The notes beneath the pieces were generated by a model. The model saw only the letters and a program-made list of their open reading frames with translations. It made no database searches and had not been told where the DNA came from. Both the position numbers and the translations under genes were made by a program. 24,000 bases of DNA, from contig NYVQ01000066.1 in NCBI GenBank assembly GCA_002684695.1, positions 7,086 to 31,085 on the forward strand. Reading direction: 5' to 3'. Positions 5,316 to 22,011 of this stretch are shown in pieces; within the stretch, counting starts at the first letter, position 1; every line of letters begins with the position of its first letter. The DNA is from SAR116 cluster bacterium (lineage in GTDB: Bacteria; Pseudomonadota; Alphaproteobacteria; Puniceispirillales; GCA-002684695).

Positions 5316-6656
5316 CTAATTTATAAATTTTATCTTAATTCCATAACAATCAAATAGGAAACTGATAAAGTTATTCGTTATATCAAGATGGTTATTTGAT
5401 TTAACAACGTCAAGTTTAATTTTCATTTTTTGATAATTAAATCGATCTATATCTACTGGAACATATTTCCAGACTTCATATGGTATAATTGATTTTCTAA
5501 CTATTTTATTTTTAATAAGCGAATAATTTGAGTTTTGCAAATATCCTACTTTAACTTTTTTACTACACAAAATTTCCCATTTATTATCGTATAACAAATT
5601 CCCAAATTCAGTAATTTTGCTTGGAGGTATCAATTCCTTAGACCACCTAACTAAAGAGACGTTTTTTTGTCTATAAAAAATTTTACATCCACCAAGAGTC
5701 CTGCCAGGCATTTTATTTTGATTATCAGTAAAATCTAATAAATGAACTAATAATTTTTCAACTTTTATTTTTTTTAAGAAATATTTTTCACCACCTATAG
5801 ATTTTATCTTTAGGAGCATTATTCTTACAGCAAAGTCTTTATTTAATCTGGATAAAAATTTTATATCTAGGTTTGACCAACCTAAGTTAAAAGACGGGAA
5901 ATGTACTGTGCATAATTCGTTTATTTTTTTATCTAATATTTCTGTTATTTTACCTACAGCTATTGAAAAATTATGTACATTTTTTAATATTTTGTCTTTA
6001 TTCTCTAAATTCTGTAAAAAATTGCGAGTTTTTACCCTTTCAAATTTTTCATTTATATTTGAATCATCTACAATAAACTTTATTGATTTTTCTTTACAAG
6101 TTTTAAGTATTATTTCTTTAGTGTATGATAGAAATGGCCTTAACAAAATGGTTCCACGCCAAGAAGAAACTTTTTTTATACCAGCAGCCCCCCAAAAACC
6201 AGTTTTTTTATTCATTCTCATGAATACTGTTTCAATATTATCATCTAAATGATGCCCCAAAAACAAGACTCCATTTTTGGATTTTGCAAAAGCAGAAAGT
6301 GTATTCAACCTTTCAAATCTTGCCCACTCTTGTATACCAGTATTTTTTGTATATTTTTTTAATTTAAATATTTCTGCCTTCAATCCAATGGCATTTAGTT
6401 TTTTTCTTGTAATTGATGCCTCTTTCCAAGAAGAATCTCTAAGTTGATGATCTATTATTACTGCAATAACATCTAACCCATTGATATTTGAGTATTTATT
6501 TAAAAGGTGGGATAGCATCATGCTATCTGGACCACCTGAAACACCTAATATTAAATTCTTTGTATTATCAAAATTAATTAAATTTAATAAGGAATTTACT
6601 TCTTTGAAAAATTTTTCTTCATCAATAATTTTTAAACTTTCGCCTAAACTAGTCAC
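5316..6656 (-). CDS. tilS: tRNA(Ile)-lysidine synthetase
   Basis: 446-aa ORF with the PP-loop motif GVSGGPDSMML. It lies between cpoB and ftsH, as is usual in alphaproteobacteria. Its start overlaps the cpoB stop by 8 nt. Confidence 0.85.
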   Translation of the reverse strand: MTSLGESLKIIDEEKFFKEVNSLLNLINFDNTKNLILGVSGGPDSMMLSHLLNKYSNINGLDVIAVIIDHQLRDSSWKEASITRKKLNAIGLKAEIFKLKKYTKNTGIQEWARFERLNTLSAFAKSKNGVLFLGHHLDDNIETVFMRMNKKTGFWGAAGIKKVSSWRGTILLRPFLSYTKEIILKTCKEKSIKFIVDDSNINEKFERVKTRNFLQNLENKDKILKNVHNFSIAVGKITEILDKKINELCTVHFPSFNLGWSNLDIKFLSRLNKDFAVRIMLLKIKSIGGEKYFLKKIKVEKLLVHLLDFTDNQNKMPGRTLGGCKIFYRQKNVSLVRWSKELIPPSKITEFGNLLYDNKWEILCSKKVKVGYLQNSNYSLIKNKIVRKSIIPYEVWKYVPVDIDRFNYQKMKIKLDVVKSNNHLDITNNFISFLFDCYGIKIKFIN

Positions 6657-7749
6657 ACGCTTTGTCAGCTTTTAACTCGTTAATTTTTCTAACAAAACGT
6701 TCTGGTGGATCAACTATAAAGTTTAAAGAATTTTCAAAAACTGTACATGCCTGCTCTGGTGGTGCGACATAACTCATTGCTTGAGCTATTCTCAAAGTTG
6801 TATCTATAGTCCTTGGGTCATCTGGATATTTATCATTAAAGTCAATATCACTAAATGCGGAGTCTTCATATTTTTTTTGCTTAAAAAGAACCCCTCCATA
6901 CCAGTAATGAGCATCTTTAATTTTTTCATCTAAAGGATGGATTGTCATGAATTCTTTAAGAGCTAATTCAGCTTCGTCATATTTACGTTTAAGTGCTAAT
7001 TCTAAAGAAAATTTAAATTGCTGTTCTGGAGTTGTGTCAGGCAATATACTAACGCTAGTAATATCTGAATTATTATCATCTAATGATAGCAAACCTAGAG
7101 TGCCATTCTCACTTTGGCTCACTTGAACATTTCCTGTCTCACTTAGATCGTTAGAAGAAAGCTGCTGAACTTCCTTTGTTGGCATTTCATTACTTCCTAG
7201 ACTATTTGAAGATAAATTATTTTGCAAACTTTGATTTTTTATAGAACTAGGCGTTATAAGAGATTCTAGTCGCATTATTCTAATTTCTGATTGTCCTATT
7301 AAATCAACAGTCGAGTTAAACCTTGAATCAATAAGCCTCAACTTATCTTTTAGTAATAATAAATCCTGCTCAATATTATTTGAATTGTGAGAATTATTGC
7401 TTTGATTCAAAGTTCCTGATGGTTGTATTTTTTCTAAATCAGAATAAATTCTGTCAATATCGTTTCTTATTTTGGTCAAATCAACTTCAACAATCCCTCT
7501 TAATTCTTTAACTGCATTTTCAAGAGCAACTATTCTTTTCTGTTGACCGTTACTAATTGAACCATTTGAATTTTTTTCATTACTGTAAACAAATTTTTCT
7601 AAATCAGCTAATTGTTTACTTAATTGCTGGAATCTTCCAGAGATGCTATCAATATTGGTTTGAGAATAAACTGGCAAATTAAATAAGTTAAAAGATAATA
7701 TTACTAAAAATAAAAAAAGTATTTTACGTAAATATAAATTTAATGCCAT
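6649..7749 (-). CDS. cpoB: Tol-Pal system protein CpoB/YbgF (signal peptide, coiled coil, N/S/Q-rich insert, C-terminal TPR-like domain)
   Basis: The track ORF starts at 7779. I prefer M11 (ATG = complement of 7747-7749) because AAGGAG (complement of 7755-7760) lies 5 nt upstream and the product then begins with a signal peptide, MALNLYLRKILFLFLVILSFNLFNLPVYSQ. The C-terminal part, KYDEAELALKEFMTIHPLDEKIKDAHYWYGGVLFKQKKYEDS...KYPDDPR, is YbgF-type TPR. It is the last gene of the tol-pal cluster. Confidence 0.75.
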   Translation of the reverse strand: MALNLYLRKILFLFLVILSFNLFNLPVYSQTNIDSISGRFQQLSKQLADLEKFVYSNEKNSNGSISNGQQKRIVALENAVKELRGIVEVDLTKIRNDIDRIYSDLEKIQPSGTLNQSNNSHNSNNIEQDLLLLKDKLRLIDSRFNSTVDLIGQSEIRIMRLESLITPSSIKNQSLQNNLSSNSLGSNEMPTKEVQQLSSNDLSETGNVQVSQSENGTLGLLSLDDNNSDITSVSILPDTTPEQQFKFSLELALKRKYDEAELALKEFMTIHPLDEKIKDAHYWYGGVLFKQKKYEDSAFSDIDFNDKYPDDPRTIDTTLRIAQAMSYVAPPEQACTVFENSLNFIVDPPERFVRKINELKADKACD

Positions 7750-7797
7750 CTCGTCTCCTTTACCAAGTTTTTTTATCATATACTATTTTAAATAGGC

Positions 7798-7845: not shown

Positions 7846-8424
7846 TTAATCAATAGACGTTACAGATCTTCTATTCATCGACCATGCTGCTTTATTTGAG
7901 CCTAATACCTGTGGTCTTTCCTTGCCGTAACTTACAACGCTAATTCTATCACCATTAATTCCGACTGAAATTAAATAGTCTTTAACTGCAGAAGCTCTTT
8001 TTTCACCTAAGGCAAGGTTGTATTCTCTTGTACCTCTCTCATCACAATGTCCCTCAATGGTAACTTTTAGTGAAGGATTTTGGTTTAGAAATTTACCTTG
8101 ATTGTCTAAAATTGATCTATCCTCATCATCTAACTCAGAACTATCGTAACCAAATAGCACTCTATCACCAACTTTAATAAGGGCTGTTTTTGGATCAGTG
8201 TCATATGAATAAGAGGATGTTCCACTATCCGATGATGTTGAGGAGGAAGAAGACGTTGATGAAGTTGAACTTGTTTCACCACCAGATGAAGAAGAAGTTC
8301 CGCTTGATGCACTTGTTGAAGCTGATGATCCCGATGCACCAGAAGCAATAGCGTCTATTTCTGATGCAGTTTCACAAGCAGCTAATAAAGCCGCACTTGC
8401 TGCAAGTAATATAAATCTTTTCAT
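7846..8424 (-). CDS. pal: Peptidoglycan-associated lipoprotein Pal with a Ser/Thr-rich linker
   Basis: 192-aa ORF. It has a lipoprotein signal peptide with the lipobox LLAAC (Cys17) and a ~47-aa S/T/G linker. The C-terminal OmpA-like domain reads TIEGHCDERGTREYNLALGEKRASAV...YGKERP. The SD GAGGGG lies upstream of the ATG. Confidence 0.93.
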   Translation of the reverse strand: MKRFILLAASAALLAACETASEIDAIASGASGSSASTSASSGTSSSSGGETSSTSSTSSSSSTSSDSGTSSYSYDTDPKTALIKVGDRVLFGYDSSELDDEDRSILDNQGKFLNQNPSLKVTIEGHCDERGTREYNLALGEKRASAVKDYLISVGINGDRISVVSYGKERPQVLGSNKAAWSMNRRSVTSID

Positions 8425-8454
8425 GAGTTCCCCTCGCTAACTAATAATGTTAAT

Positions 8455-8483
8455 ATAATAACTAATTAAATGAACTGTCGCAA
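8455..8483 (-). promoter_or_regulatory. Candidate sigma70-type promoter for pal (TTGCGA-N17-TATTAT)
   Basis: Read on the minus strand: the -35 TTGCGA is the complement of 8478-8483, the spacer is exactly 17 nt, and the -10 TATTAT is the complement of 8455-8460. It sits about 30 nt upstream of the pal ATG, inside the unusually long 129-nt tolB-pal spacer. AT-rich background makes chance -10 matches common. Confidence 0.35.
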
Positions 8484-8553
8484 CTTAATTAATTTTATTC
8501 AATTTAGCAAGTCTATTAATTCCCATTTTGGTTTTTTTTTAATTTTTTTATTT

Positions 8554-9888
8554 TTAAGGTATCAGTGGTGACCATGCTGGATCTGATGCATCTGAGGGCG
8601 TAATTATTTCTCTCTCATTATATCCAGTTATATCTACCCTAAAAAGCCTTACATTACCACCAGTACCATCATCATTACTTTTTTCTTGTTTAAAATACAT
8701 TAAAACTCGTCCATTGGGTGCCCAAGTTGGCGCCTCAACTAGATAACCTTTTGATATTAGTCTTTCTCCACTTCCATCAGGTCTCATAACGCCAATATAA
8801 AACTGACCCTGATACATTTTGGTGAAAGCAATTAAATCTCCACGAGGAGACCAAACTGGTGTTGCATATCTTCCATCTTTAAAAGATATTCTCTTTTGGT
8901 TACTACCATCTAAATTCATCACATATAATTGTTGTGACCCTCCCCTGTCAGAATTAAATACTATTTTTTGTCCATCAGGTGAAAAAGTTGGTGATGTATC
9001 AATTGAAGGACTATTTGTAAGTTGATTAACCTCCTGAGAAAGCAAGTTCATTATAAAAATGTCAGTAAGCCCTTGGTCTGCTAAACTCATTATGATAGAC
9101 TTTCCATCTGGACTAAACCTAGGGGCAAATGTCATCCCTGGAAATGTTCCTAAAAGCTCTTGTCTATTAGTTTCTAAATTAAGTACATATACTCTTGGTT
9201 GATTTTGATAATAAGCTAAGTAAGCAACTTCTTGTGAAGTTGGTGAAAATCTTGGAGTTAAAACAAGATAAGAACCGTCTGTAAGGTATTGATGATTATG
9301 ACCATCTTGATCCATAATAGCTAATCTTTTTACTCTAGCATTAAGGGGGCCACTCTCAGAAATATAAACTATCCTAGTATCAAAATATCCTTCTTCACCT
9401 GTAAGTCTTTTATATATTTCATCAGCTGCAATATGGGAAATCCTTCTCCAATATTTGCTATCCACAGATAATTTTAGACCTGTTAAGTCTTGTTCTGTAA
9501 CAACATCCCATAATCTAAACTCTACTTCTACAATTCCACTGCTATTAATGGTTGCAGAACCAGTTACTAGAGCTTTTACACCTAAAGGATCCCAATTATT
9601 AAAAACTGGTCTTATACTTGGTGATTTTGGTTTTTCTATATATGCCTGTTGGTCAACTACATCAAATAAACCAGTAGAAACCAGATCATTAGTGATAACT
9701 CTTACAATATTCTCTCCTATATCATTTGAATTAGTTTCAGAAATAAATTTTTGGATGGCAATTGGAAGAGGATCAACATTGCCCTCAGTAATATCAACTA
9801 CTAAATTTTGAGCGTAAGTATTACTGCACATAATTAAAGATAAAATAAATATTAAATTTTTAATTATTTTTAACATTTTAAATTCCAT
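8554..9888 (-). CDS. tolB: Tol-Pal system beta-propeller protein TolB
   Basis: 444-aa ORF with a signal peptide ending NTYAQ. PD40/WD40-like blades repeat (FSPDGKS, FSPDGQK, WSPRGD, WAPNG). It lies between tolA and pal. The start may be M5 (9876). Confidence 0.95.
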
Positions 9889-9893
9889 TCAAA

Positions 9894-10955
9894 TTAATAA
9901 TTACCGAACATTGTTGCTGGATCAAATCTAAAGATTAGAGTTTTCCATTCACTAAATTTACTTGAAGGCAAAGGCATTGGTTCAGCATCTTTAACAGCTC
10001 TTATAGCAGCATTAGCAGCAGCTTTGTAAAATGAATTATTAGCATTTAAACCTTTATTTACCCATTGTGCCTTTAAAACATAACCCTCGTTATTAAATTC
10101 CATAAATATGTCAACAATAAGGTTCTCAGCTCCAGCTGCTCCTATAGGTGGAGTCCAAAAATTGGCTATGTGTCTTTTTAATAAGTCAATTTCACTTACT
10201 CCAAATGGCTTTAATAGGTTTTTAGGTTTTGAGCTTACAGCACTTGCTACAAGATTTTTCATTGTTTCCAATTCATTTTTTCTTTTCTCTTTTTCAATTT
10301 TCTCTTTTTGATTTTTAACTTCTTCAATTTTCTTTTGTGCTTGAGTTTCTTTTATTTTTTCTAAAGTTTTCAGAACTGAAGTTAATGCATTTGGATTGGT
10401 TTTATTCTTATTAGCCTTTGCTTTTTCTTTTTGAATTTGCGGTTTAGAAATAGGTTTTTTAATATTTGATAAACTTAATGGATTTTCAGGCTTCTCACTA
10501 GGAACATTTTTATCTTTAATAACTTTTGGTTTTTGGACTGGAGAAACTGGCATAACAGGTTTTTCTGAAGGAGATACTGGTATTGAAGGTTTTTCCGAGG
10601 GTAATATTTTTTTACTAACAACTACTGGTTTTTTTGATGGTGTTTCCAATAGTTTATTTTTTTTATGTGTTACTTCTTCTGTTTTTTTTGAAATATCCTT
10701 TATTTCATCGTCTTTTTGGACTTTTTCTTTATTTAGCGGTTTTTGTTCCTCTAAGTTAGTATCTTCAACTACTTTTAGCATCTCAAAAGAAACAATAGTT
10801 AAATCTGGTGGAAGTTGTCTACCAAATTTTGGTAGACCATACATTGCAACTCCAATAATTAATATATGTATAAATAAAGATAAAACACTTGCAGATCTTA
10901 CAAGTGATCCTTCATCTATAAAATCTATTTGTTTAAATAAATTACTAGCTATCAT
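9894..10955 (-). CDS. tolA: Tol-Pal system protein TolA
   Basis: 353-aa ORF. It has an N-terminal TM anchor (VLSLFIHILIIGVAMYGL), a long K/E/P-rich helical/extended domain II and a C-terminal globular domain. It lies between tolR and tolB and overlaps the tolR stop by 11 nt. Confidence 0.8.
   Translation of the reverse strand: MIASNLFKQIDFIDEGSLVRSASVLSLFIHILIIGVAMYGLPKFGRQLPPDLTIVSFEMLKVVEDTNLEEQKPLNKEKVQKDDEIKDISKKTEEVTHKKNKLLETPSKKPVVVSKKILPSEKPSIPVSPSEKPVMPVSPVQKPKVIKDKNVPSEKPENPLSLSNIKKPISKPQIQKEKAKANKNKTNPNALTSVLKTLEKIKETQAQKKIEEVKNQKEKIEKEKRKNELETMKNLVASAVSSKPKNLLKPFGVSEIDLLKRHIANFWTPPIGAAGAENLIVDIFMEFNNEGYVLKAQWVNKGLNANNSFYKAAANAAIRAVKDAEPMPLPSSKFSEWKTLIFRFDPATMFGNY
10540..10599 (-). 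repeat. Tandem 30-nt in-frame repeat inside tolA, encoding SEKP(V/S)(M/I)PVSP twice
   Basis: Units 10540-10569 and 10570-10599 are 23/30 identical by my alignment. A third PSEKP copy lies further along the protein. Confidence 0.8.
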
Positions 10956-11370
10956 CAGGCAGTTTAGCTACTAATGCTACTTTTTCGTATCCAGCTGACT
11001 GTATTTTCCCCATCAACCCTATCACCTCACCATAAGGCAATAGATTATCTCCTCTAACAAAAATTCTTGTTTTTGAGTTAACTTTGGAAATTGCTTTTAA
11101 TCTTGGAATAAGGTTCTCAGAACTAACAACTGCATCTTGTATGTAAATTTCCCTGTTTTTATTAATTGTAACTATTAAAGGGTCTGCATCTGAATTGAGT
11201 TGATTTGCTTTGGTTTTAGGGAGATCAACTTGAACACCTACTGTTAACATTGGTGCAGTAATCATAAAAACAATTAATAAAACTAGCATAACATCAACTA
11301 ATGGAGTGACATTAATATTACTCATAGGTTTTTTTGATCTATATCTTATTTTTTTTAAATTTGAGTTCAT
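10945..11370 (-). CDS. tolR: Tol-Pal system protein TolR (ExbD/TolR family)
   Basis: 141-aa ORF with a single TM helix carrying the conserved Asp (NVTPLVDVMLVLLIVFMI). Its start directly abuts the tolQ stop with 0 nt between them. Confidence 0.92.
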   Translation of the reverse strand: MNSNLKKIRYRSKKPMSNINVTPLVDVMLVLLIVFMITAPMLTVGVQVDLPKTKANQLNSDADPLIVTINKNREIYIQDAVVSSENLIPRLKAISKVNSKTRIFVRGDNLLPYGEVIGLMGKIQSAGYEKVALVAKLPDDS

Positions 11371-12105
11371 TTAACTATCTTCATCTAAGCGTCTAGATAA
11401 AATTGCCATAAACTCCACTGAGAAATTTTCAAGTCTCAAAGAAACTTTTTCAATATCATTTGAAAATTTATTATATGCAGCAACAGCAGGAATTGCTGCT
11501 AAAAGACCTAAAGCTGTAGCAAATAAAGCTTCAGCAATACCAGGGGCCACAACAGCTAAAGAGGTATTTTTTGAAGCAGCTATTGCAGAAAAAGAATTCA
11601 TTATTCCCCAAACTGTTCCAAATAAACCAATAAATGGAGCTACCGAACCAATTGATGCCAGAAATGTCATTCCTCTCTCTAATCTACCTATTTCTTTGGT
11701 TATAGCAACTCCCATACCCCTATCAATTCTTTGAGATAATGAAGCTTTAAAATTATCACCTTTCGATACTAGTCCAGAATTAGTGGCTCTTCTCCATTCT
11801 TGCATTGCTGACGAAAAAACACTTGAAATGGCGCCATGTGACTTACGATTAATCTCATTAGTCATTTCATCATAAATATCATCCAAAGATGTGCCAGACC
11901 AAAATTCATTTTCAAAGCTGTCTGCTAATCTAAGCTCTCTTCGTGATAAAAATATTTTCTCAATTATAATTGTCCAACACCATACAGAAGCTAATAATAA
12001 AATTAGCATCACAAATTTAACAACAATATCAGCTTGCAGAAATAGGCTCCAAAGTGAAAGATTAGCCGACCCTTCAAGAACCTCTTTTACTACCTCTTGC
12101 TCCAT
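11371..12105 (-). CDS. tolQ: Tol-Pal system protein TolQ (MotA/TolQ/ExbB proton channel)
   Basis: 244-aa ORF with three TM segments and the signature [16 protein letters not shown]...[26 protein letters not shown] lies upstream of the ATG. Confidence 0.93.
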
Positions 12106-17210: not shown

Positions 17211-17519
17211 TCAAACTAATTTATCTGCAACTAATTCTATTCTTTGAGTAATGGTTTTAATTTCCTCTGCCAAAGATTCATAATTTTCTAGCACCACTTT
17301 GTTGGGTTCCTCCTTTAGTTTGTCTGCAATTATCAAACATGTCATTAAAAGTAACCTGGCATCACCAACTTGCCCCAAAGATGAAACTAATTTCTCAACT
17401 TCATTATTTATTAAAAGACTTAAATTTTTAATATGATCTTCCTGACCTTCGTCACAAGCAATTTTATAAGTTTGCTTATTTATAGTTATTTCAACAACAT
17501 TGTTAATGGAACTTGTCAT
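17211..17519 (-). CDS. zapA: Cell division protein ZapA
   Basis: 102-aa ORF with VEITINKQTYKIACDEGQEDHIKNLSLLIN...LGQVGDARLLLMTCLIIADKL, which matches the alphaproteobacterial ZapA consensus. Confidence 0.9.
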   Translation of the reverse strand: MTSSINNVVEITINKQTYKIACDEGQEDHIKNLSLLINNEVEKLVSSLGQVGDARLLLMTCLIIADKLKEEPNKVVLENYESLAEEIKTITQRIELVADKLV

Positions 17520-17522
17520 GAT

Positions 17523-17708
17523 TTATAATTTATCTAAATCTTTAATTAGATCTGAGACTTTTTCTCGAACTTGCAAAAATTCTGCTTTTAAATCGTTATT
17601 ATTTGTATTTTTAACGTCTTTCTGAACTTTATTTAAGTTATTAGCTTTTCTTTCAAGAAGATCTAAAGCTTTTGATAGTTTATTAATTTCTATTTTTAAA
17701 TTATCCAT
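17523..17708 (-). CDS. Small (61 aa) all-helical coiled-coil protein; possible ZapA partner (ZauP/ZapB-like)
   Basis: The ORF ends 3 nt before the zapA ATG on the same strand. Its sequence is heptad-like and charged: MDNLKIEINKLSKALDLLERKANNLNKVQKDV...LQVREKVSDLIKDLDKL. In Caulobacter a small coiled-coil ZapA-binding protein (ZauP) is encoded next to zapA. Confidence 0.5.
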   Translation of the reverse strand: MDNLKIEINKLSKALDLLERKANNLNKVQKDVKNTNNNDLKAEFLQVREKVSDLIKDLDKL

Positions 17709-17859
17709 ACAATAAAAAGAATATTTATTTATAAATTGCTACTAACATTATAATGAGTCAATGAAGAAATAAATATTATAATATTTTTATTGATAAAAAC
17801 ATTAATATAACTCATTAAAGCAATTAATGTTATTTGTTTGTTATATTGGGAATTTAAAT

Positions 17860-18426
17860 ATGAAAATTAATGGAAATGCTATTAAGCAAGGTAATGTTAT
17901 AGAGCATAAGGGATCATTGTGGGTTGCAGTAAAAACAAGTCACGTAAAACCAGGAAAGGGCGGCGCATTTGCTCAAGTTGAATTAAAAAATTTAAGAAAT
18001 AATACTAAACTTAATGAAAGGTTTAGATCTTCTGAAACTGTTGAAAGAATTATCTTGGAAGAGAAAAATGCAACTTACCTTTACGAGGAAAATGATACAC
18101 TAATTTTTATGGATATTGAAACTTATGATCAGAAATCAATTTCAAGGGAGTTAATTGGAAATAAATATCAACTACTAGAAGATGGTATGGAAGTTATTTT
18201 GAATACATTTGAGGATGAAGTAATTTCAATTCAATTGCCAGATACCATTAAAGTAGAGATATTTGAAGCAGATGCAGTTATCAAAGGTCAAACAGCTTCT
18301 TCATCTTATAAACCTGCAACTATTAAAAATGATATAAGGATTTTAGTTCCTCCTCATATAGAGAAAGGAACAAAGGTAATAATTAAAACTGAAGATCTAT
18401 CATATGTTGAGAGAGCCAAGGAATAG
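17860..18426 (+). CDS. efp: Elongation factor P
   Basis: The track ORF starts at 17827. EF-P orthologs begin MKI..., so I prefer the ATG at 17860 (188 aa): MKINGNAIKQGNVIEHKGSLWVAVKTSHVKPGKGGAFAQVELKNL. Confidence 0.93.
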   Translation: MKINGNAIKQGNVIEHKGSLWVAVKTSHVKPGKGGAFAQVELKNLRNNTKLNERFRSSETVERIILEEKNATYLYEENDTLIFMDIETYDQKSISRELIGNKYQLLEDGMEVILNTFEDEVISIQLPDTIKVEIFEADAVIKGQTASSSYKPATIKNDIRILVPPHIEKGTKVIIKTEDLSYVERAKE

Positions 18427-18430
18427 ATAA

Positions 18431-19195
18431 ATGTTACCCATGCAAGGTAGGTCTCCCATAATTAATGTATCTTCTAATGCATGTATTCTTGCAGGAAAAA
18501 AGCTTCTTAAAGATTTTTTAGAAATCGAAAATCTACAAGTTAGCAAAAAAGATACATCAAAGTTTTTTTCAATTACTTTGAAAAATCTTGAGAAAAGTCT
18601 CTTTGAAAGTTTAACCAAAGCAAGACCTGAATGGTTAATAAACCCTATCAATAATGAAGAGCGAAAAGATTCATGGGTGGTCAGTGTTATGTCTGGTAAA
18701 ATCAATTTTATTCATGGAATTCCTCATATAGCTATTTCAATAGCGTCACTTAACAATGGCAAAATAACTTCTGGATGTATATATGACCCAATTAGAAAAG
18801 AATTATTTTACTGTGAATTAGGAAATGGTTCATTTTTAAATGAAAAAAGAATAAGAGTTTCTGGAAGAGATAGTATTATAAAATCTATTATAAACTGTGG
18901 CTCTAATGAGTTTCCCTTAGATAGTATTAAGAGATTAAAATTATCTGGATCCCAAATAAGAATGTCTGGTTGCCCAGCTTTAGACTTAGCTTGGGTGGCA
19001 TCTGGTAGAATAGATGCATACTTGGACAAAATAGATTTATCAGAGTATATTGCAGGAATTATTTTGGTTAAAGAAGCTGGGGGATTTTGTACAGATTATT
19101 CAATGGGTGAAAATATTTTAGAGAAAAAAGAAATATGTGCTGGGAATCCATCTATGCATAATAATGTTATTAAAATTTTGAAAAAAAATCAGTGA
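18431..19195 (+). CDS. suhB: SuhB/inositol-monophosphatase-family protein with a degenerate active site (probable pseudo-phosphatase)
   Basis: 254-aa ORF that is colinear with SuhB. Matching blocks are ENLQVSKK, LTKARPE, INFIHGIPHIAISIA, YDPIRKELF, GNGSFLN, RIRVS, ALDLAWVASGRIDAY and VKEAGGFCTD. The catalytic motifs, however, are replaced (see findings). Confidence 0.85.
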   Translation: MLPMQGRSPIINVSSNACILAGKKLLKDFLEIENLQVSKKDTSKFFSITLKNLEKSLFESLTKARPEWLINPINNEERKDSWVVSVMSGKINFIHGIPHIAISIASLNNGKITSGCIYDPIRKELFYCELGNGSFLNEKRIRVSGRDSIIKSIINCGSNEFPLDSIKRLKLSGSQIRMSGCPALDLAWVASGRIDAYLDKIDLSEYIAGIILVKEAGGFCTDYSMGENILEKKEICAGNPSMHNNVIKILKKNQ

Positions 19196-19217: not shown

Positions 19218-19246
19218 CTGACACTTTTAAAAAATATGTATAAAAT
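19218..19246 (+). promoter_or_regulatory. Candidate promoter for the MotA/MotB-like pair (CTGACA-N17-TAAAAT)
   Basis: The -35-like CTGACA is at 19218-19223, the spacer is 17 nt, and TAAAAT is at 19241-19246. This would leave a very short leader before the ATG at 19258. AT-rich background makes this a weak call. Confidence 0.25.
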
Positions 19247-19257
19247 TTAGGCTTTTT

Positions 19258-20328
19258 ATGACAGATCCAAGAAAATACTTAATTAGAATGATAATGTTTA
19301 TAATTGTTGTTTTTGCAATAGTTATAATCCTGAATAAACCCCTAATAGATGCTTTTAATGCAAATACTGCTATAAATGGTCTTATTTCAGTAATTCTTCT
19401 AATTGGTGTTTTATTTTTATGTAGACAAACTATCAGACTTGTACCAGAAAAAAAATGGATTGAAAACATTCAAGATCAGAATAAGAGCCCCACTGAACCA
19501 GTGCTTTTAGCTCCTTTAGCTTATATGCTTGGAAAAGAAACAAGTTTAATTAATTTTTCAATTTCTGCCGCAGCTCTTCGATCTGTTCTTGATGGTGTAG
19601 CTGGTAGACTTGATGAAAATAGAGAAATTGCTAGATATTTAATAGGTTTGCTTATTTTTTTGGGGCTTTTAGGTACATTCTGGGGATTAATAGGTACGGT
19701 TAGCTCGGTTAGCAATGTTATAAGTGGACTAAATTTTGGCAATCAAGAAACAAGTCTAGTTTTTTCAAATTTACAAAAAGGACTTGAAACACCTCTTGAG
19801 GGAATGTCTACTGCATTTTCTTCATCTCTTTTCGGGTTGGCTGGCTCACTAATATTAGGTTTATTAGATCTTCAATTAGGCCAAGCCTCAGGAAGATTTT
19901 ATCAAGATTTAGAAAATTGGCTATCTTCGTCTGTTAAAATATCAAACAACCAATTATCTAACTCTTTTACAAACGAAAATATTAGTTATTCAGATAGCTT
20001 GACGGAAAGTTCTGCTCTACATTTATCTGAACTGGCATCTGCATTAACTACAATTGAGGCTGATAGGAGTAGATTATTACACCAAATCACTGAATTAAAT
20101 ACTCAACTAAGAAGGCTGGCTGATCAAATAGAAAATGAAAATTCTATTCAAAAAAAATTACCAGTAATTGAGGCACAATTACAAAGTATTTCTGAGGAAG
20201 CTCGTAATAATTATTCATCACAAATTGACATTATAAAACAAGAAACAAGATCTTTAGGGAATTCTATTAAGAAATCAAAAGCGCAAGAGGGGAATAAACA
20301 TAAAAATATTAAGTTAAGAGCTGATTAA
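19258..20328 (+). CDS. MotA/TolQ/ExbB-family channel protein, 4 TM, with a C-terminal cytoplasmic coiled-coil tail
   Basis: 356-aa ORF with hydrophobic segments at residues 8-26, 38-56, 125-148 and 183-207. FLGLLGTFWGLIGTV and GMSTAFSSSLFGLAGSLILG parallel the TolQ motifs in this same window. Residues ~245-345 are heptad-like and charged. Confidence 0.8.
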   Translation: MTDPRKYLIRMIMFIIVVFAIVIILNKPLIDAFNANTAINGLISVILLIGVLFLCRQTIRLVPEKKWIENIQDQNKSPTEPVLLAPLAYMLGKETSLINFSISAAALRSVLDGVAGRLDENREIARYLIGLLIFLGLLGTFWGLIGTVSSVSNVISGLNFGNQETSLVFSNLQKGLETPLEGMSTAFSSSLFGLAGSLILGLLDLQLGQASGRFYQDLENWLSSSVKISNNQLSNSFTNENISYSDSLTESSALHLSELASALTTIEADRSRLLHQITELNTQLRRLADQIENENSIQKKLPVIEAQLQSISEEARNNYSSQIDIIKQETRSLGNSIKKSKAQEGNKHKNIKLRAD

Positions 20329-21726
20329 ATGGCTATCTCAAGGAGTCGTATAAGTAGAACTGATAACTTGACATGGCCAGGTTTTGTTGACTCTTTAGCA
20401 GCACTTTTAATGGTAGTAATATTTGTGTTAATGATATTTAGTGTTGCCCAGTTTTACTTAAATCAAATAGTAAGCGGACAAGATGAGGCTTTGGTCGATT
20501 TAAATAAAGAAATTAGTAACCTTTATAATTTACTTCAAATTGAAAAAAATTCTAATAATGACTTAATGCTTCAATTTAATAAATTAAATACGGATTTCCA
20601 AAATATAAATAATGATTTAAATCAGGTGAGAGAAGAAAATGATGCTCTTTCACAACTAATTATGTCATTAAAAAGCTCGCTATCAGAAACTCAAAATCAA
20701 CTAAAAAGTGCTGAAAATAAAATCATAAGTCAAGAAGGTCAATTGAAAAATAAGGAAAAAGAAATCATTGAAATACAAAGGGTCAATAAACAAGAATATA
20801 AGGCTCTAGAAACCACAATAACTGAATTAGAAAAGAAATTAGCTTTAAGCCAAGATGAATTGGCATTAAAAATTGATGACATATTGAAGCTTGAAAAAAT
20901 CAAAACTAACCTTAAACTTGAAATTAATAATTTGATTTCAAATAATAAAGAGATAAATACTGAAATATTAAAAGAAAGAGATTATACAAAAACTCTTGAG
21001 GAAAAAATTGCCTCATTGAAAGATAAAGCCATTCTTACTCAGAAAGAAAATAAAAATAGTATTTCAGAAATCATTAAACTTAAAGCCAAGATCAATAGCT
21101 TAAAAATAGCTCTAACAGAAGTCAATTTGAAATTAAGCCAATTACAAGCTCTTTTTGAAAAACAGAAAAAAGAAGATGAAATAAATAAAATTGAAACTGC
21201 AAATCTTGGAAAAGAATTAAATTCAGCATTAGCAAGTAGAGTTAAGGAATTACAAAAATTTAGATCTGAGTTTTTTGGAAGGCTAAGCGAATTACTTGAA
21301 AATCGAGATGAGATAAGAGTTGTTGGAGATAGGTTTGTTTTTCAATCGGAATTATTATTTGAAAAAGGTTCAGCTAATCTAGGGGATAAAGGCAATGAAC
21401 AATTAGAGAAATTATTCATTACATTAGATGATATAGCTAGGACAATTCCAAATGATATTAATTGGGTTTTACAAGTTGAAGGACATACAGATAATATTCC
21501 TATAAAAACTGGAAAATACTCAGATAATTGGGATTTATCAACTGAAAGAGCATTATCTGTTGTAAGATTTTTGATTGATAAAGGCATTAAACCAAAGCGA
21601 TTGTCAGCTACAGGTTACGGAGAATTTCAGCCTCTAAATAATTTAGACAAAAATTTTAGCTTAGAAGAAATAAATAGTAAAAATAGAAGAATTGAATTAA
21701 AAATAACACAACGCATTATTAACTAA
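20329..21726 (+). CDS. MotB-like protein: TM helix with conserved Asp, ~280-aa coiled coil, C-terminal OmpA-type peptidoglycan-binding domain
   Basis: 465-aa ORF whose ATG abuts the upstream stop (TAAATG, 20326-20331). The N-terminal WPGFVDSLAALLMVVIFVLMIF resembles E. coli MotB WKIAYADFMTAMMAFFLVM, with Asp21 at 20389-20391. Residues ~50-330 are K/E/N/L/I-rich heptads. The C-terminal part, VEGHTDNIP...NWDLSTERALSVVRFL...ATGYGEFQP...NRRIELKI, is the OmpA_C/MotB signature. Confidence 0.8.
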   Translation: MAISRSRISRTDNLTWPGFVDSLAALLMVVIFVLMIFSVAQFYLNQIVSGQDEALVDLNKEISNLYNLLQIEKNSNNDLMLQFNKLNTDFQNINNDLNQVREENDALSQLIMSLKSSLSETQNQLKSAENKIISQEGQLKNKEKEIIEIQRVNKQEYKALETTITELEKKLALSQDELALKIDDILKLEKIKTNLKLEINNLISNNKEINTEILKERDYTKTLEEKIASLKDKAILTQKENKNSISEIIKLKAKINSLKIALTEVNLKLSQLQALFEKQKKEDEINKIETANLGKELNSALASRVKELQKFRSEFFGRLSELLENRDEIRVVGDRFVFQSELLFEKGSANLGDKGNEQLEKLFITLDDIARTIPNDINWVLQVEGHTDNIPIKTGKYSDNWDLSTERALSVVRFLIDKGIKPKRLSATGYGEFQPLNNLDKNFSLEEINSKNRRIELKITQRIIN

Positions 21727-21792: not shown

Positions 21793-22011
21793 ATGAAAAA
21801 AGATATACATCCTGACTATCATGAAATTACTATAGAAATGACTGATGGTAGTAAATATAAAACAAGATCTACATTAGGTAAAAACGGACATCATTTAAAA
21901 TTGGATATTGATCCTAAAACACATCCGGCATGGACTGGTCAACATAGAATAGTTGATTCTGGTGGCCAAGTTGCAAGATTTAACAAAAAATTTGGTAAAC
22001 TTGGTATATAA
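21793..22011 (+). CDS. rpmE: 50S ribosomal protein L31 (Cys-less alphaproteobacterial form)
   Basis: 72-aa ORF: [27 protein letters not shown]...HPAWTG...[16 protein letters not shown] lies 6 nt upstream of the ATG. Confidence 0.95.

Follow-up and report, generated by a model that had tools for sequence, protein, structure and literature searches.

A core-genome gene pair with a ZorAB-like layout in Alphaproteobacteria: a putative wall-anchored motor outside motility and phage defence

The A-B gene pair and its products

A 24,000-nucleotide stretch of DNA from a SAR116 cluster bacterium (assembly GCA_002684695.1, contig NYVQ01000066.1, positions 7,086 to 31,085; hereafter the window) carries, between suhB and rpmE, two adjoining genes, here called A and B, whose products are related to the ring and axle subunits of ion-driven 5:2-type motors such as MotAB and ZorAB. 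A preliminary description of this DNA had placed open reading frame (ORF) A and ORF B with stop and start codons abutting, and had counted them as a second pair of the MotA/ExbB/TolQ type besides TolQR; the two frames lie as it described, and Pfam, Foldseek and the annotation of the window bear out the second pair, a genuine tolQRAB-pal cluster also being present at 7846-12105. The TAAATG junction is compatible with translational coupling of A and B. The features of the pair are listed here (TM, transmembrane helix; aa, amino acids; AF2, AlphaFold 2; pLDDT, predicted local distance difference test score).

19258-20328 (+): ORF A, 356 aa; ring subunit of the MotA/ExbB/TolQ/ZorA type; four membrane helices, helical tail in the cytoplasm
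19276-19437 (+): TM1-TM2 hairpin of A, residues ~7-60, with a conserved short periplasmic loop (L29, F33, N36, N40)
19627-19887 (+): TM3-loop-TM4 channel core of A, residues 124-210, with invariant FLGLLGTFWGL and GMxTAFSSSLFGL
20005-20292 (+): helical tail of A, residues 250-345 (AF2, heptad score, ZorA1 alignment to residue 313)
20236-20268 (+): C-terminal tail motif of A, KQETRSLGNSI in the window; E329, R331 and L333 invariant or nearly so
20326-20331 (+): TAAATG junction, gatTAAATGgct; the ATG of B directly after the TAA stop of A
20329-21726 (+): ORF B, 465 aa; MotB/ZorB-type axle subunit, within NCBIfam NF006543 (PRK09039.1-2)
20374-20454 (+): WPGFVD and membrane helix of B, residues 16-42; Asp21 is codon 20389-20391 (GAC)
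20458-21258 (+): predicted periplasmic coiled-coil stalk of B, residues 44-310, 267 aa, starting with the conserved juxtamembrane SGxDxAL
20947-20988 (+): predicted break or hinge in the B stalk, residues 207-220, pLDDT < 50
21259-21714 (+): pre-domain helix (FRSEFFGRL) and MotB-type OmpA-like domain of B, residues 311-462
21355-21642 (+): Pfam OmpA match
21481-21492 (+): GHTD
21526-21564 (+): NWDLSTERALSVV

Four hydrophobic segments were found in A by hydropathy (residues ~7-25, 40-60, 126-150 and 185-207), the helices of the AF2 model agree with them, and the charge distribution fits an N-in/C-in topology. At 33-45% identity among family members, the invariant columns comprise the TM3 and TM4 motifs listed above and several residues in both periplasmic loops, and they include T140 (codon 19675-19677, in the TM3 motif) and S190 (codon 19825-19827, in the TM4 motif), both invariant in alignments of 38 and of 44 A sequences. 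The preliminary description had set FLGLLGTFWGLIGTV against the TolQ of the same window with 7 of 15 residues identical; the count is correct, and the same stretch is paired by hhalign and by a BLOSUM alignment, both of which align T140 with the Thr of the GT(V/F)WG motif of TolQ. S190 was paired by eye with the second channel Thr (TM3) of TolQ. The hhalign match between the A family and this TolQ extends over 23 columns only, at 74% probability.

The Pfam model MotA_ExbB (PF01618) matches A marginally, at 25.0 bits against a cut-off of 22.9 (residues 104-186), and at E < 1e-3 it matches only 17 of 38 diverse A members. The PADLOC model ZorA1 matches all 38 of these members (best E = 5e-17) and ZorA3 matches 37, the PADLOC models having been used without curated cut-offs; A of the window is matched by ZorA1 at E = 1.1e-12 over residues 123-313, from TM3 into the tail. 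Judged by sequence profiles, the nearest described family for A is ZorA. An AF2 model of A, built from the family alignment (pLDDT 70), was compared with the Protein Data Bank (PDB) by Foldseek, and chains of ExbB, TolQ and ZorA were returned at probabilities of 0.98-1.0, with E values of only 5e-3 and target-normalised TM-scores of 0.4-0.55 (the highest, 0.55, for type I ZorA); PomA stood at rank 50 in the same list, with TM-scores of 0.21-0.28. As modelled, A resembles the ExbB-type helical fold and is nearer to ExbB, TolQ and ZorA than to flagellar MotA. Searches of the PDB by sequence gave coiled-coil noise only when the profile of the full A alignment was used, and only ZorA chains at a non-significant E of ~1 when A was used as a single phmmer query; by such comparisons the A family is remote from every solved motor.

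The tail of A comprises about 130-145 residues after TM4 in the window. Helices were predicted by AF2 at residues 250-290 and 294-345, following a low-confidence or disordered linker (227-248), and a crude heptad score flags residues 253-301. The C-terminal tail motif has the family consensus ELRxE(I/L)RxLA(R/K)TIA and lies 14-35 residues before the C-terminus. Measured from W221 to this motif, tail lengths have modes at ~102-111 and ~136-140 residues, with the window in the short class, and rare long tails of 197-370 residues contain internal repeats. No heptad quantisation of the tail lengths was found (p = 0.44, distinct lengths), as would be expected from the flexible linker. A tail resembling that of ZorA but short, as had been proposed earlier, agrees with the coverage of the ZorA1 model, which extends from the motor core into the first part of the tail.

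B has a single hydrophobic segment (residues 14-49 by hydropathy) behind a basic N-terminus. An Asp in this helix at 20389-20391 had been singled out beforehand as the likely counterpart of the essential Asp of MotB; the codon GAC encodes Asp21, and 75 of 75 B orthologues have WPGxVD with its Asp, the channel motifs of A being conserved likewise. At the other end of the protein, the predicted canonical OmpA/MotB-type peptidoglycan-binding domain is confirmed by Pfam (PF00691, residues 343-438, E = 2.5e-15, 57 bits against a cut-off of 27.2), by its motifs and by modelled structure. GHTD is kept in 61 of 71 B orthologues and NxxLSxxRAxxV in 63 of 71, with both intact in the window; the pre-domain helix (Y/F)RSEFFGRL is conserved in the family. 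When this domain and its preceding helix were submitted to Foldseek, MotS, MotB and PomB periplasmic domains came first, and a match to the complete ZorB chain was also obtained.

With 352.8 bits against a cut-off of 305, B is a member of the curated family NF006543 (PRK09039.1-2, 'peptidoglycan-binding protein'), a name that records the domain only and to which no function, partner or motor context is attached. PADLOC ZorB3 matches B at E = 2.2e-20, in the wall-binding domain only, and the ExbD/TolR model (PF02472) gives no match in B, although it does match the true TolR of the window. The deposited model of B (P0133, 'hypothetical protein CMN37_08550') has 354 aa and starts 111 codons late, so that the membrane helix and Asp21 are missing from it (window 20329-20661, residues 1-111); by comparison with the orthologues, the 465-aa reading is the correct one. 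A database record 100% identical to A is named 'biopolymer transporter ExbB', and database names across the family are inconsistent (ExbB, MotA, 'peptidoglycan-binding protein', hypothetical).

The region between membrane helix and wall-binding domain had been described earlier as an uninterrupted coiled coil. A long, helical, Pro-free stalk was indeed found: residues 50-330 contain zero Pro and 1.4% Gly, and the AF2 model of B (pLDDT 75) has a helix at 17-206 and another at 221-323, followed by an alpha/beta domain. The claim that it is uninterrupted did not stand, however, as the two helices are separated in the model by the low-confidence break at 207-220. This break and a roughly three-fold variation in length among species also weaken the earlier picture of a single helix of ~40 nm.

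To compare stalks, the distance from the end of the membrane helix to the (Y/F)RSEFF motif was measured in 60 orthologues, and it ranges from 137 to 422 residues, with 0.04 Pro per 100 residues. Since the sequences are related, only distinct lengths were counted, and even so the events are partly dependent; of the 37 distinct lengths taken modulo 7, 18 fall in class 4, 8 in class 1 and 6 in class 0, which places 32 of 37 in these three classes, and classes 3 and 6 are empty (chi-square p = 2e-8). Taking the main class as reference, the permitted shifts amount to 0, +3 and +4, that is, whole heptads, a 'stammer' and a 'stutter'. This confinement indicates that insertions and deletions in the stalk preserve the heptad phase, which is strong comparative evidence for a genuine coiled coil as opposed to disordered low-complexity sequence. 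It further indicates that the angular register of the membrane helices relative to the wall anchor is under selection, as expected if an axle must resist torque or if the orientation of the anchor matters.

Gene neighbourhood, distribution and Sinorhizobium meliloti orthologues

The window has efp, suhB, A, B and rpmE in the same orientation (+), the gaps between them being 4-66 nucleotides (nt), and no convincing terminator was found between any of them.

17827-18426 (+): efp, conserved upstream neighbour
18431-19195 (+): suhB-type inositol monophosphatase gene, conserved upstream neighbour
19218-19246 (+): candidate promoter CTGACA-17-TAAAAT, 10 of 12 consensus positions, 12 nt 5' of the start codon of A
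21793-22011 (+): rpmE (ribosomal protein L31), conserved downstream neighbour

Promoter-like sites are no more numerous in the region than in shuffled sequence, and the site at 19218-19246 is thus a candidate only. The remaining genes of the window include a glmM-type mutase gene, folP, ftsH, tilS, pal, tolB, tolA, tolR, tolQ, ybgC, ruvBAC, yebC, ymdB, a 5-formyl-tetrahydrofolate cyclo-ligase gene, zapA and ppdK. Consistent with the preliminary description, these are housekeeping genes, and flagellar, TonB-receptor and defence genes are absent from the annotated genes of the window. The same description had supposed a non-motile, SAR11-like host, which is wrong: the source belongs to SAR116/Puniceispirillales, and the closest related locus is that of a SAR116 single-cell genome. 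A non-motile host is not to be assumed, because the cultured SAR116 isolate HIMB100 has 41 genes in the category 'cell motility' of the COG database (PMC3368413).

A relative of A is present in at least 583 species genomes (one genome per species), and an exhaustive search of cluster representatives gave 442 clusters for A at E <= 1e-30; at E <= 1e-3, the homologues of A and of B each number at least ~7,800. Loci were compared in the best 80 of these at least 583 genomes. They are essentially all alphaproteobacterial and come from SAR116, Azospirillum, Nitrospirillum, Niveispirillum, Acetobacter, Gluconobacter, Kordiimonas and Kiloniellaceae, as well as from Thalassobaculum, Defluviicoccus, Devosia, Xanthobacteraceae and Odyssella. 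B lies immediately 3' of A in 78 of the 80 loci, with an A-B gap that is mostly -4 to +30 nt; suhB is found upstream in ~59, efp upstream in ~54 and rpmE downstream in ~30. The order efp-suhB-A-B-rpmE recurs in SAR116, Azospirillum, Acetobacter, Devosia and Sinorhizobium, usually with a gene for an ATP-binding cassette (ABC) exporter before rpmE; this exporter gene is convergent, occurs in 23 of the 80 loci and is absent from the window. These data indicate that A-B is a widespread, vertically inherited module of the alphaproteobacterial core genome, and the term 'orphan', which had been applied to the pair before, is misleading for genes that are syntenic, occur in so many species and include a member of a curated family.

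Some loci are irregular in gene content or in taxon label. A distant A homologue (P0388, 370 aa; locus L081, 2496-3608) has no adjoining B, and the next gene, on the other strand, encodes an acetyltransferase. Doubtful taxon labels are borne by four metagenome-assembled genomes (MAGs) that contain the pair, L010, L013, L052 and L033 ('Rhizobium', 'Patescibacteria', 'Mycobacteriaceae' and 'beta proteobacterium'); the L010 protein has its nearest relatives in records assigned to Stellaceae. L059, a MAG of Xanthomonadales (Chiayiivirga), is a possible genuine carrier outside the Alphaproteobacteria.

Directly 5' of A, 28 of the 80 loci have a third gene on the same strand (for example L017 2167-3225, L008 45-1124, L011 4870-5868, L034 4772-5956 and L058 4809-5933). 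Its product carries a cleavable signal peptide and a conserved VxVDLSVLD motif near the N-terminus, together with a linker rich in Pro (22%) and Ala (19%) and an OmpA domain that is degenerate, with RRLSLSRA kept and GHTD lost. A search of the window for this gene found no copy, and there is no room for one between suhB (ending at 19195) and A (starting at 19258). Loci of the Hyphomicrobiales type (L053, L054, L069, L072, L079 and L080) are arranged as thiE, RgsF, suhB, A, B, ABC exporter, rpmE. The S. meliloti locus (L089, 3599-11213) likewise has thiE2, the gene for a Sel1-repeat protein (RgsF), suhB, A, B, the ABC exporter gene and rpmE. RgsF, an essential Sel1/TPR protein of the growth zone, is thus encoded two genes upstream of A in these genomes, and its gene is absent from the window. 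Altogether, the neighbour genes hint at a role in the envelope. The Rgs growth-zone proteins of S. meliloti were also considered as possible members of the same family as A and B, and this was rejected, as none has a MotA or OmpA domain and RgsF is a TPR/Sel1 protein.

The S. meliloti pair was found in a plasmid collection, on a 3.7-Mb replicon mislabelled pSymB, and its translations contain all of the family motifs. We infer from adjacency that its genes are SMc03993 (A) and SMc03992 (B), which correspond to a 2.4-kb gap among SMc03990 (rpmE), SMc03991 (ABC) and SMc03994 (suhB) in Table S1 of Arnold et al. 2017. Neither gene is among the 832 'essential and underrepresented' genes of that transposon-sequencing study, a list that contains the neighbours suhB, rgsF, rpmE and the ABC gene (Arnold et al. 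2017), and neither is in the core-essential list of diCenzo et al. 2018. From this absence, the pair appears to be dispensable in laboratory culture. SMc03992 and SMc03993 are also absent from the CtrA data sets of Pini 2015.

A paper describing the A-B family was not found in the literature searched, which includes few subscription journals, so that a report may have been missed; nor was any paper found there that treats ZorAB together with Alphaproteobacteria. The family is not described by Puente-Lelievre et al. 2025 (PMC12505986) or by the force-transducer paper in MBE 2025 (PMC12204202). In the stator phylogeny of the former, the non-flagellar homologues are stated to lack OmpA-type B subunits (PMC12505986), and the A-B family was therefore evidently outside its sample.

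A proposed wall-anchored motor and its alternatives

For A-B, the comparisons above establish homology and fold class, membrane topology and conserved residues, operon structure, synteny and distribution, and the heptad phasing of the stalk lengths. The reading preferred here, with a probability of roughly 0.65, is that A and B form a non-flagellar, peptidoglycan-anchored, ion-driven motor of the 5:2 type, with the layout of ZorAB and a housekeeping role. By analogy with the characterised motors, we infer its 5:2 stoichiometry, its use of protons, its rotation, the tail as its output and its place in the cell. The membrane helices of two B chains, each with its Asp21, would lie at the centre of a ring of A subunits (A5B2), and on the periplasmic side the two B chains would pair in parallel as a coiled-coil stalk, of 267 residues in the window. 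At the end of this stalk, a dimeric MotB-type domain would grip the cell wall and make B the fixed axle. Protons passing by way of Asp21 and the T140 and S190 hydroxyls of A (TM3 and TM4) would then turn the A ring around B. The output would be delivered by the five cytoplasmic A tails with their conserved tip motif, as in ZorA, to a partner not encoded nearby, and the role would be a housekeeping one linked to the envelope, serving neither motility nor phage defence.

Several observations weigh against the motor. No partner for the A tail is known, and no phenotype for the pair is on record in the literature searched; in S. meliloti, neither SMc03992 nor SMc03993 is listed in the NCR247 or polymyxin B sensitivity tables (Arnold et al. 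2017) or in the Rgs/Tol pull-down tables (Schaeper 2018, Krol 2020). In Zymomonas, the pair is absent at the efp-suhB position. The three-fold range of stalk lengths argues against a fixed ruler between inner membrane and wall. Finally, the Pfam score of A is marginal, the pLDDT values of the AF2 monomers (70 for A and 75 for B) indicate moderate confidence, and a profile of the A membrane core found no solved 5:2 motor in the PDB at E <= 10.

The alternative that survives best, although it is unlikely, is a passive tether in which B ties the inner membrane to peptidoglycan and A is a scaffold, with neither ion flux nor rotation. The long stalk and intact peptidoglycan-binding domain of B would suit such a tether, as would the high divergence of A from the solved motors and the absence of the S. 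meliloti orthologues from the essential and under-represented list. However, the Asp of B is invariant in 75 of 75 sequences, and the Thr and Ser positions of A and its Gly-rich TM3 and TM4 motifs are invariant among sequences of 33-45% identity, which is hard to explain without ion conduction. The strict coupling of the A and B genes, and a conserved A tail with its terminal motif, also speak against a mere scaffold.

It is still less probable that A-B is a Ton/Tol-like energiser that powers a periplasmic or outer-membrane partner, such as the upstream OmpA-domain protein or factors of the RgsF type. Like TolQR(-TolA-Pal) and ExbBD(-TonB), the pair has an A subunit of the same superfamily and fold with the GT(V/F)WG membrane motif, and a housekeeping role in the envelope is plausible for it. 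A partner of this kind is suggested by the gene for a secreted OmpA-domain protein directly upstream of A in 28 of the 80 loci, by the RgsF/Sel1 gene upstream in the Hyphomicrobiales-type loci and S. meliloti, and by the conservation of the periplasmic loops of A and of the juxtamembrane segment of B. The window and its SAR116 relatives, however, have no third gene upstream of A, and where the OmpA-domain protein is encoded it has a cleavable signal peptide in place of a membrane anchor of the TonB/TolA type. Moreover, A carries a tail, there is no adjoining gene of the TolA/TonB type, and B, as far as its sequence indicates, is not ExbD/TolR-like (PF02472 is absent) and would bind the wall itself, in the manner of MotB and ZorB. 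The absence of SMc03992 and SMc03993 from the Rgs and TolQ pull-down lists points the same way.

Improbable, too, is the view that A-B diverged from flagellar stators and, as a paralogue of the MotAB/MotCD kind, powers or tunes the flagellum of the host. MotAB, PomAB and MotPS share several features with the pair: in each, two adjoining, coupled genes encode an A subunit with four membrane helices, N-in, and a B subunit with an N-terminal helix and its Asp and a C-terminal OmpA-like domain with a preceding helix. The C-terminal domain of B is most like those of MotS, MotB and PomB, NCBIfam MotD gives B 110 bits, and public records of these genes read 'flagellar motor protein MotA', 'chemotaxis protein MotB' and 'probably associated with flagella'. 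In one metagenomic lineage (L082-L084, 3089-10171; A = P0365), fliK-flgD-flgE are found upstream of the pair in divergent orientation, separated from it by a DUF456 gene; no other flagellar neighbourhood was seen, and the 'probably associated with flagella' labels may stem from this lineage. Because of this lineage, the database labels and the 41 motility-category genes of the SAR116 isolate HIMB100 (PMC3368413), the stator keeps a low probability.

Against a stator, the cytoplasmic segment between TM2 and TM3 of A has only ~63 residues, whereas that of MotA is much larger and bears the torque-generating interface; A thus lacks the large cytoplasmic torque domain, and in B a long coiled coil replaces the short plug and linker of the Mot proteins. 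ExbB, TolQ and ZorA, and not PomA, head the Foldseek list for A. The NCBIfam scores of B are far under the cut-offs (MotD 110 against 283, MotS 87 against 264 and MotB 65 against 250), and the NCBIfam MotA models give no match to A. FlgE, FlgD and FliK are encoded within 6 kb of the pair in 0 of the 80 loci, where the conserved neighbours are efp, suhB and rpmE, and the flagellar cluster of S. meliloti contains a motA of its own (SMc03022). The labels 'flagellar motor protein MotA' and 'MotB' on these genes are probably wrong.

A remnant or minimal Zorya anti-phage system, ZorAB without effectors, is very improbable: the PADLOC ZorA and ZorB models are the best profile matches and the layout is that of ZorAB (an ExbB-like A with a tail, a MotB-like B), but no ZorC/D, ZorE or ZorF/G genes adjoin the pair (its neighbours being efp, suhB, rpmE and ppdK in the window and efp, suhB, thiE, the ABC exporter gene and rpmE in related loci), its synteny across alphaproteobacterial orders in at least 583 species is the reverse of what a patchily distributed, mobile defence island would show, the A tail of about 130-145 residues compares with PADLOC ZorA models of 487-1063 positions, and only 3 of 72,556 plasmid records match, on replicons of 3.5-4.6 Mb of which the one inspected is chromosome-sized, as probably are all three, so that the lack of effector genes, the fixed core-genome position and the near absence from plasmids together argue that this is not a Zorya system.

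The proposed motor nevertheless has its closest likeness in layout in ZorAB (PDB 8qyd, 8vvn), which shares the ExbB/TolQ-like A with a C-terminal cytoplasmic helical tail and the B with one Asp-bearing membrane helix and a MotB-type wall-binding domain; ZorA and ZorB are among the structural matches. The two differ in that the A-B pair is a syntenic part of the core genome without ZorC/D/E/F/G, in an A tail that is about five times shorter, and in the B stalk of 137-422 residues, for which the ZorB chains (~225 residues) have no room. A also appears, by a reading of the models only, to have an extra N-terminal membrane helix. A long periplasmic extension on the B-like subunit is found in GldLM/PorLM as well. 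GldM extends into the periplasm as a string of globular domains, regarded as a rotating output, whereas the extension in the A-B pair is a coiled coil with a wall anchor that would make B the fixed part. The searches made turned up no sequence relationship to GldLM/PorLM. In agreement with the preliminary description, the pair fits none of the characterised motor classes. Within a known superfamily, it would be a motor of the 5:2 type that combines the layout of ZorAB with a housekeeping setting and with a coiled-coil stator stalk locked in phase.

A more specific form of the motor reading, offered tentatively and thought somewhat doubtful as it stands, is that A-B is the housekeeping counterpart of Zorya ZorAB, and possibly its evolutionary source or sister. 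It would be a constitutive, proton-driven rotary device with a wall-locked, phase-constrained stalk as its axle, and its short rotating tail would report or act on the state of the envelope, for example on the distance or tension between inner membrane and wall. If this were true, 5:2 motors would gain in A-B a fifth functional class, in addition to those for motility, for Ton/Tol transport and envelope maintenance, for gliding and type IX secretion, and for phage defence. The characterised 5:2 motors (MotAB, ExbBD, TolQR, GldLM and ZorAB) each power a different major process, and A-B would be a sixth architecture. As a ZorAB layout without the setting of a defence island, it would offer a way into the origin of the Zorya motor and into the role of a tailed, wall-anchored motor in normal physiology. 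The pair belongs to the core genome of a bacterial class that includes the tractable Sinorhizobium, Azospirillum, Acetobacter and Gluconobacter, and the heptad-phased stalk predicts that insertions of 7 residues will be tolerated and those of 2 or 5 will not.

Other reading frames of the window

Three further ORFs of the window, all on the - strand, lie apart from the A-B pair. Immediately upstream of zapA (17211-17519), a 61-aa coiled-coil ORF at 17523-17708 has a counterpart of 45% identity in a SAR116 locus (L001) and no Pfam match; it may encode a small ZapA-associated protein of the kind known in Caulobacter. In the Tol region, no Pfam match at E <= 1e-3 was obtained for a 352-aa ORF at 9894-10955, in the tolA position, or for a 375-aa ORF at 6649-7779, which lies downstream of pal at the usual place of cpoB/ybgF.

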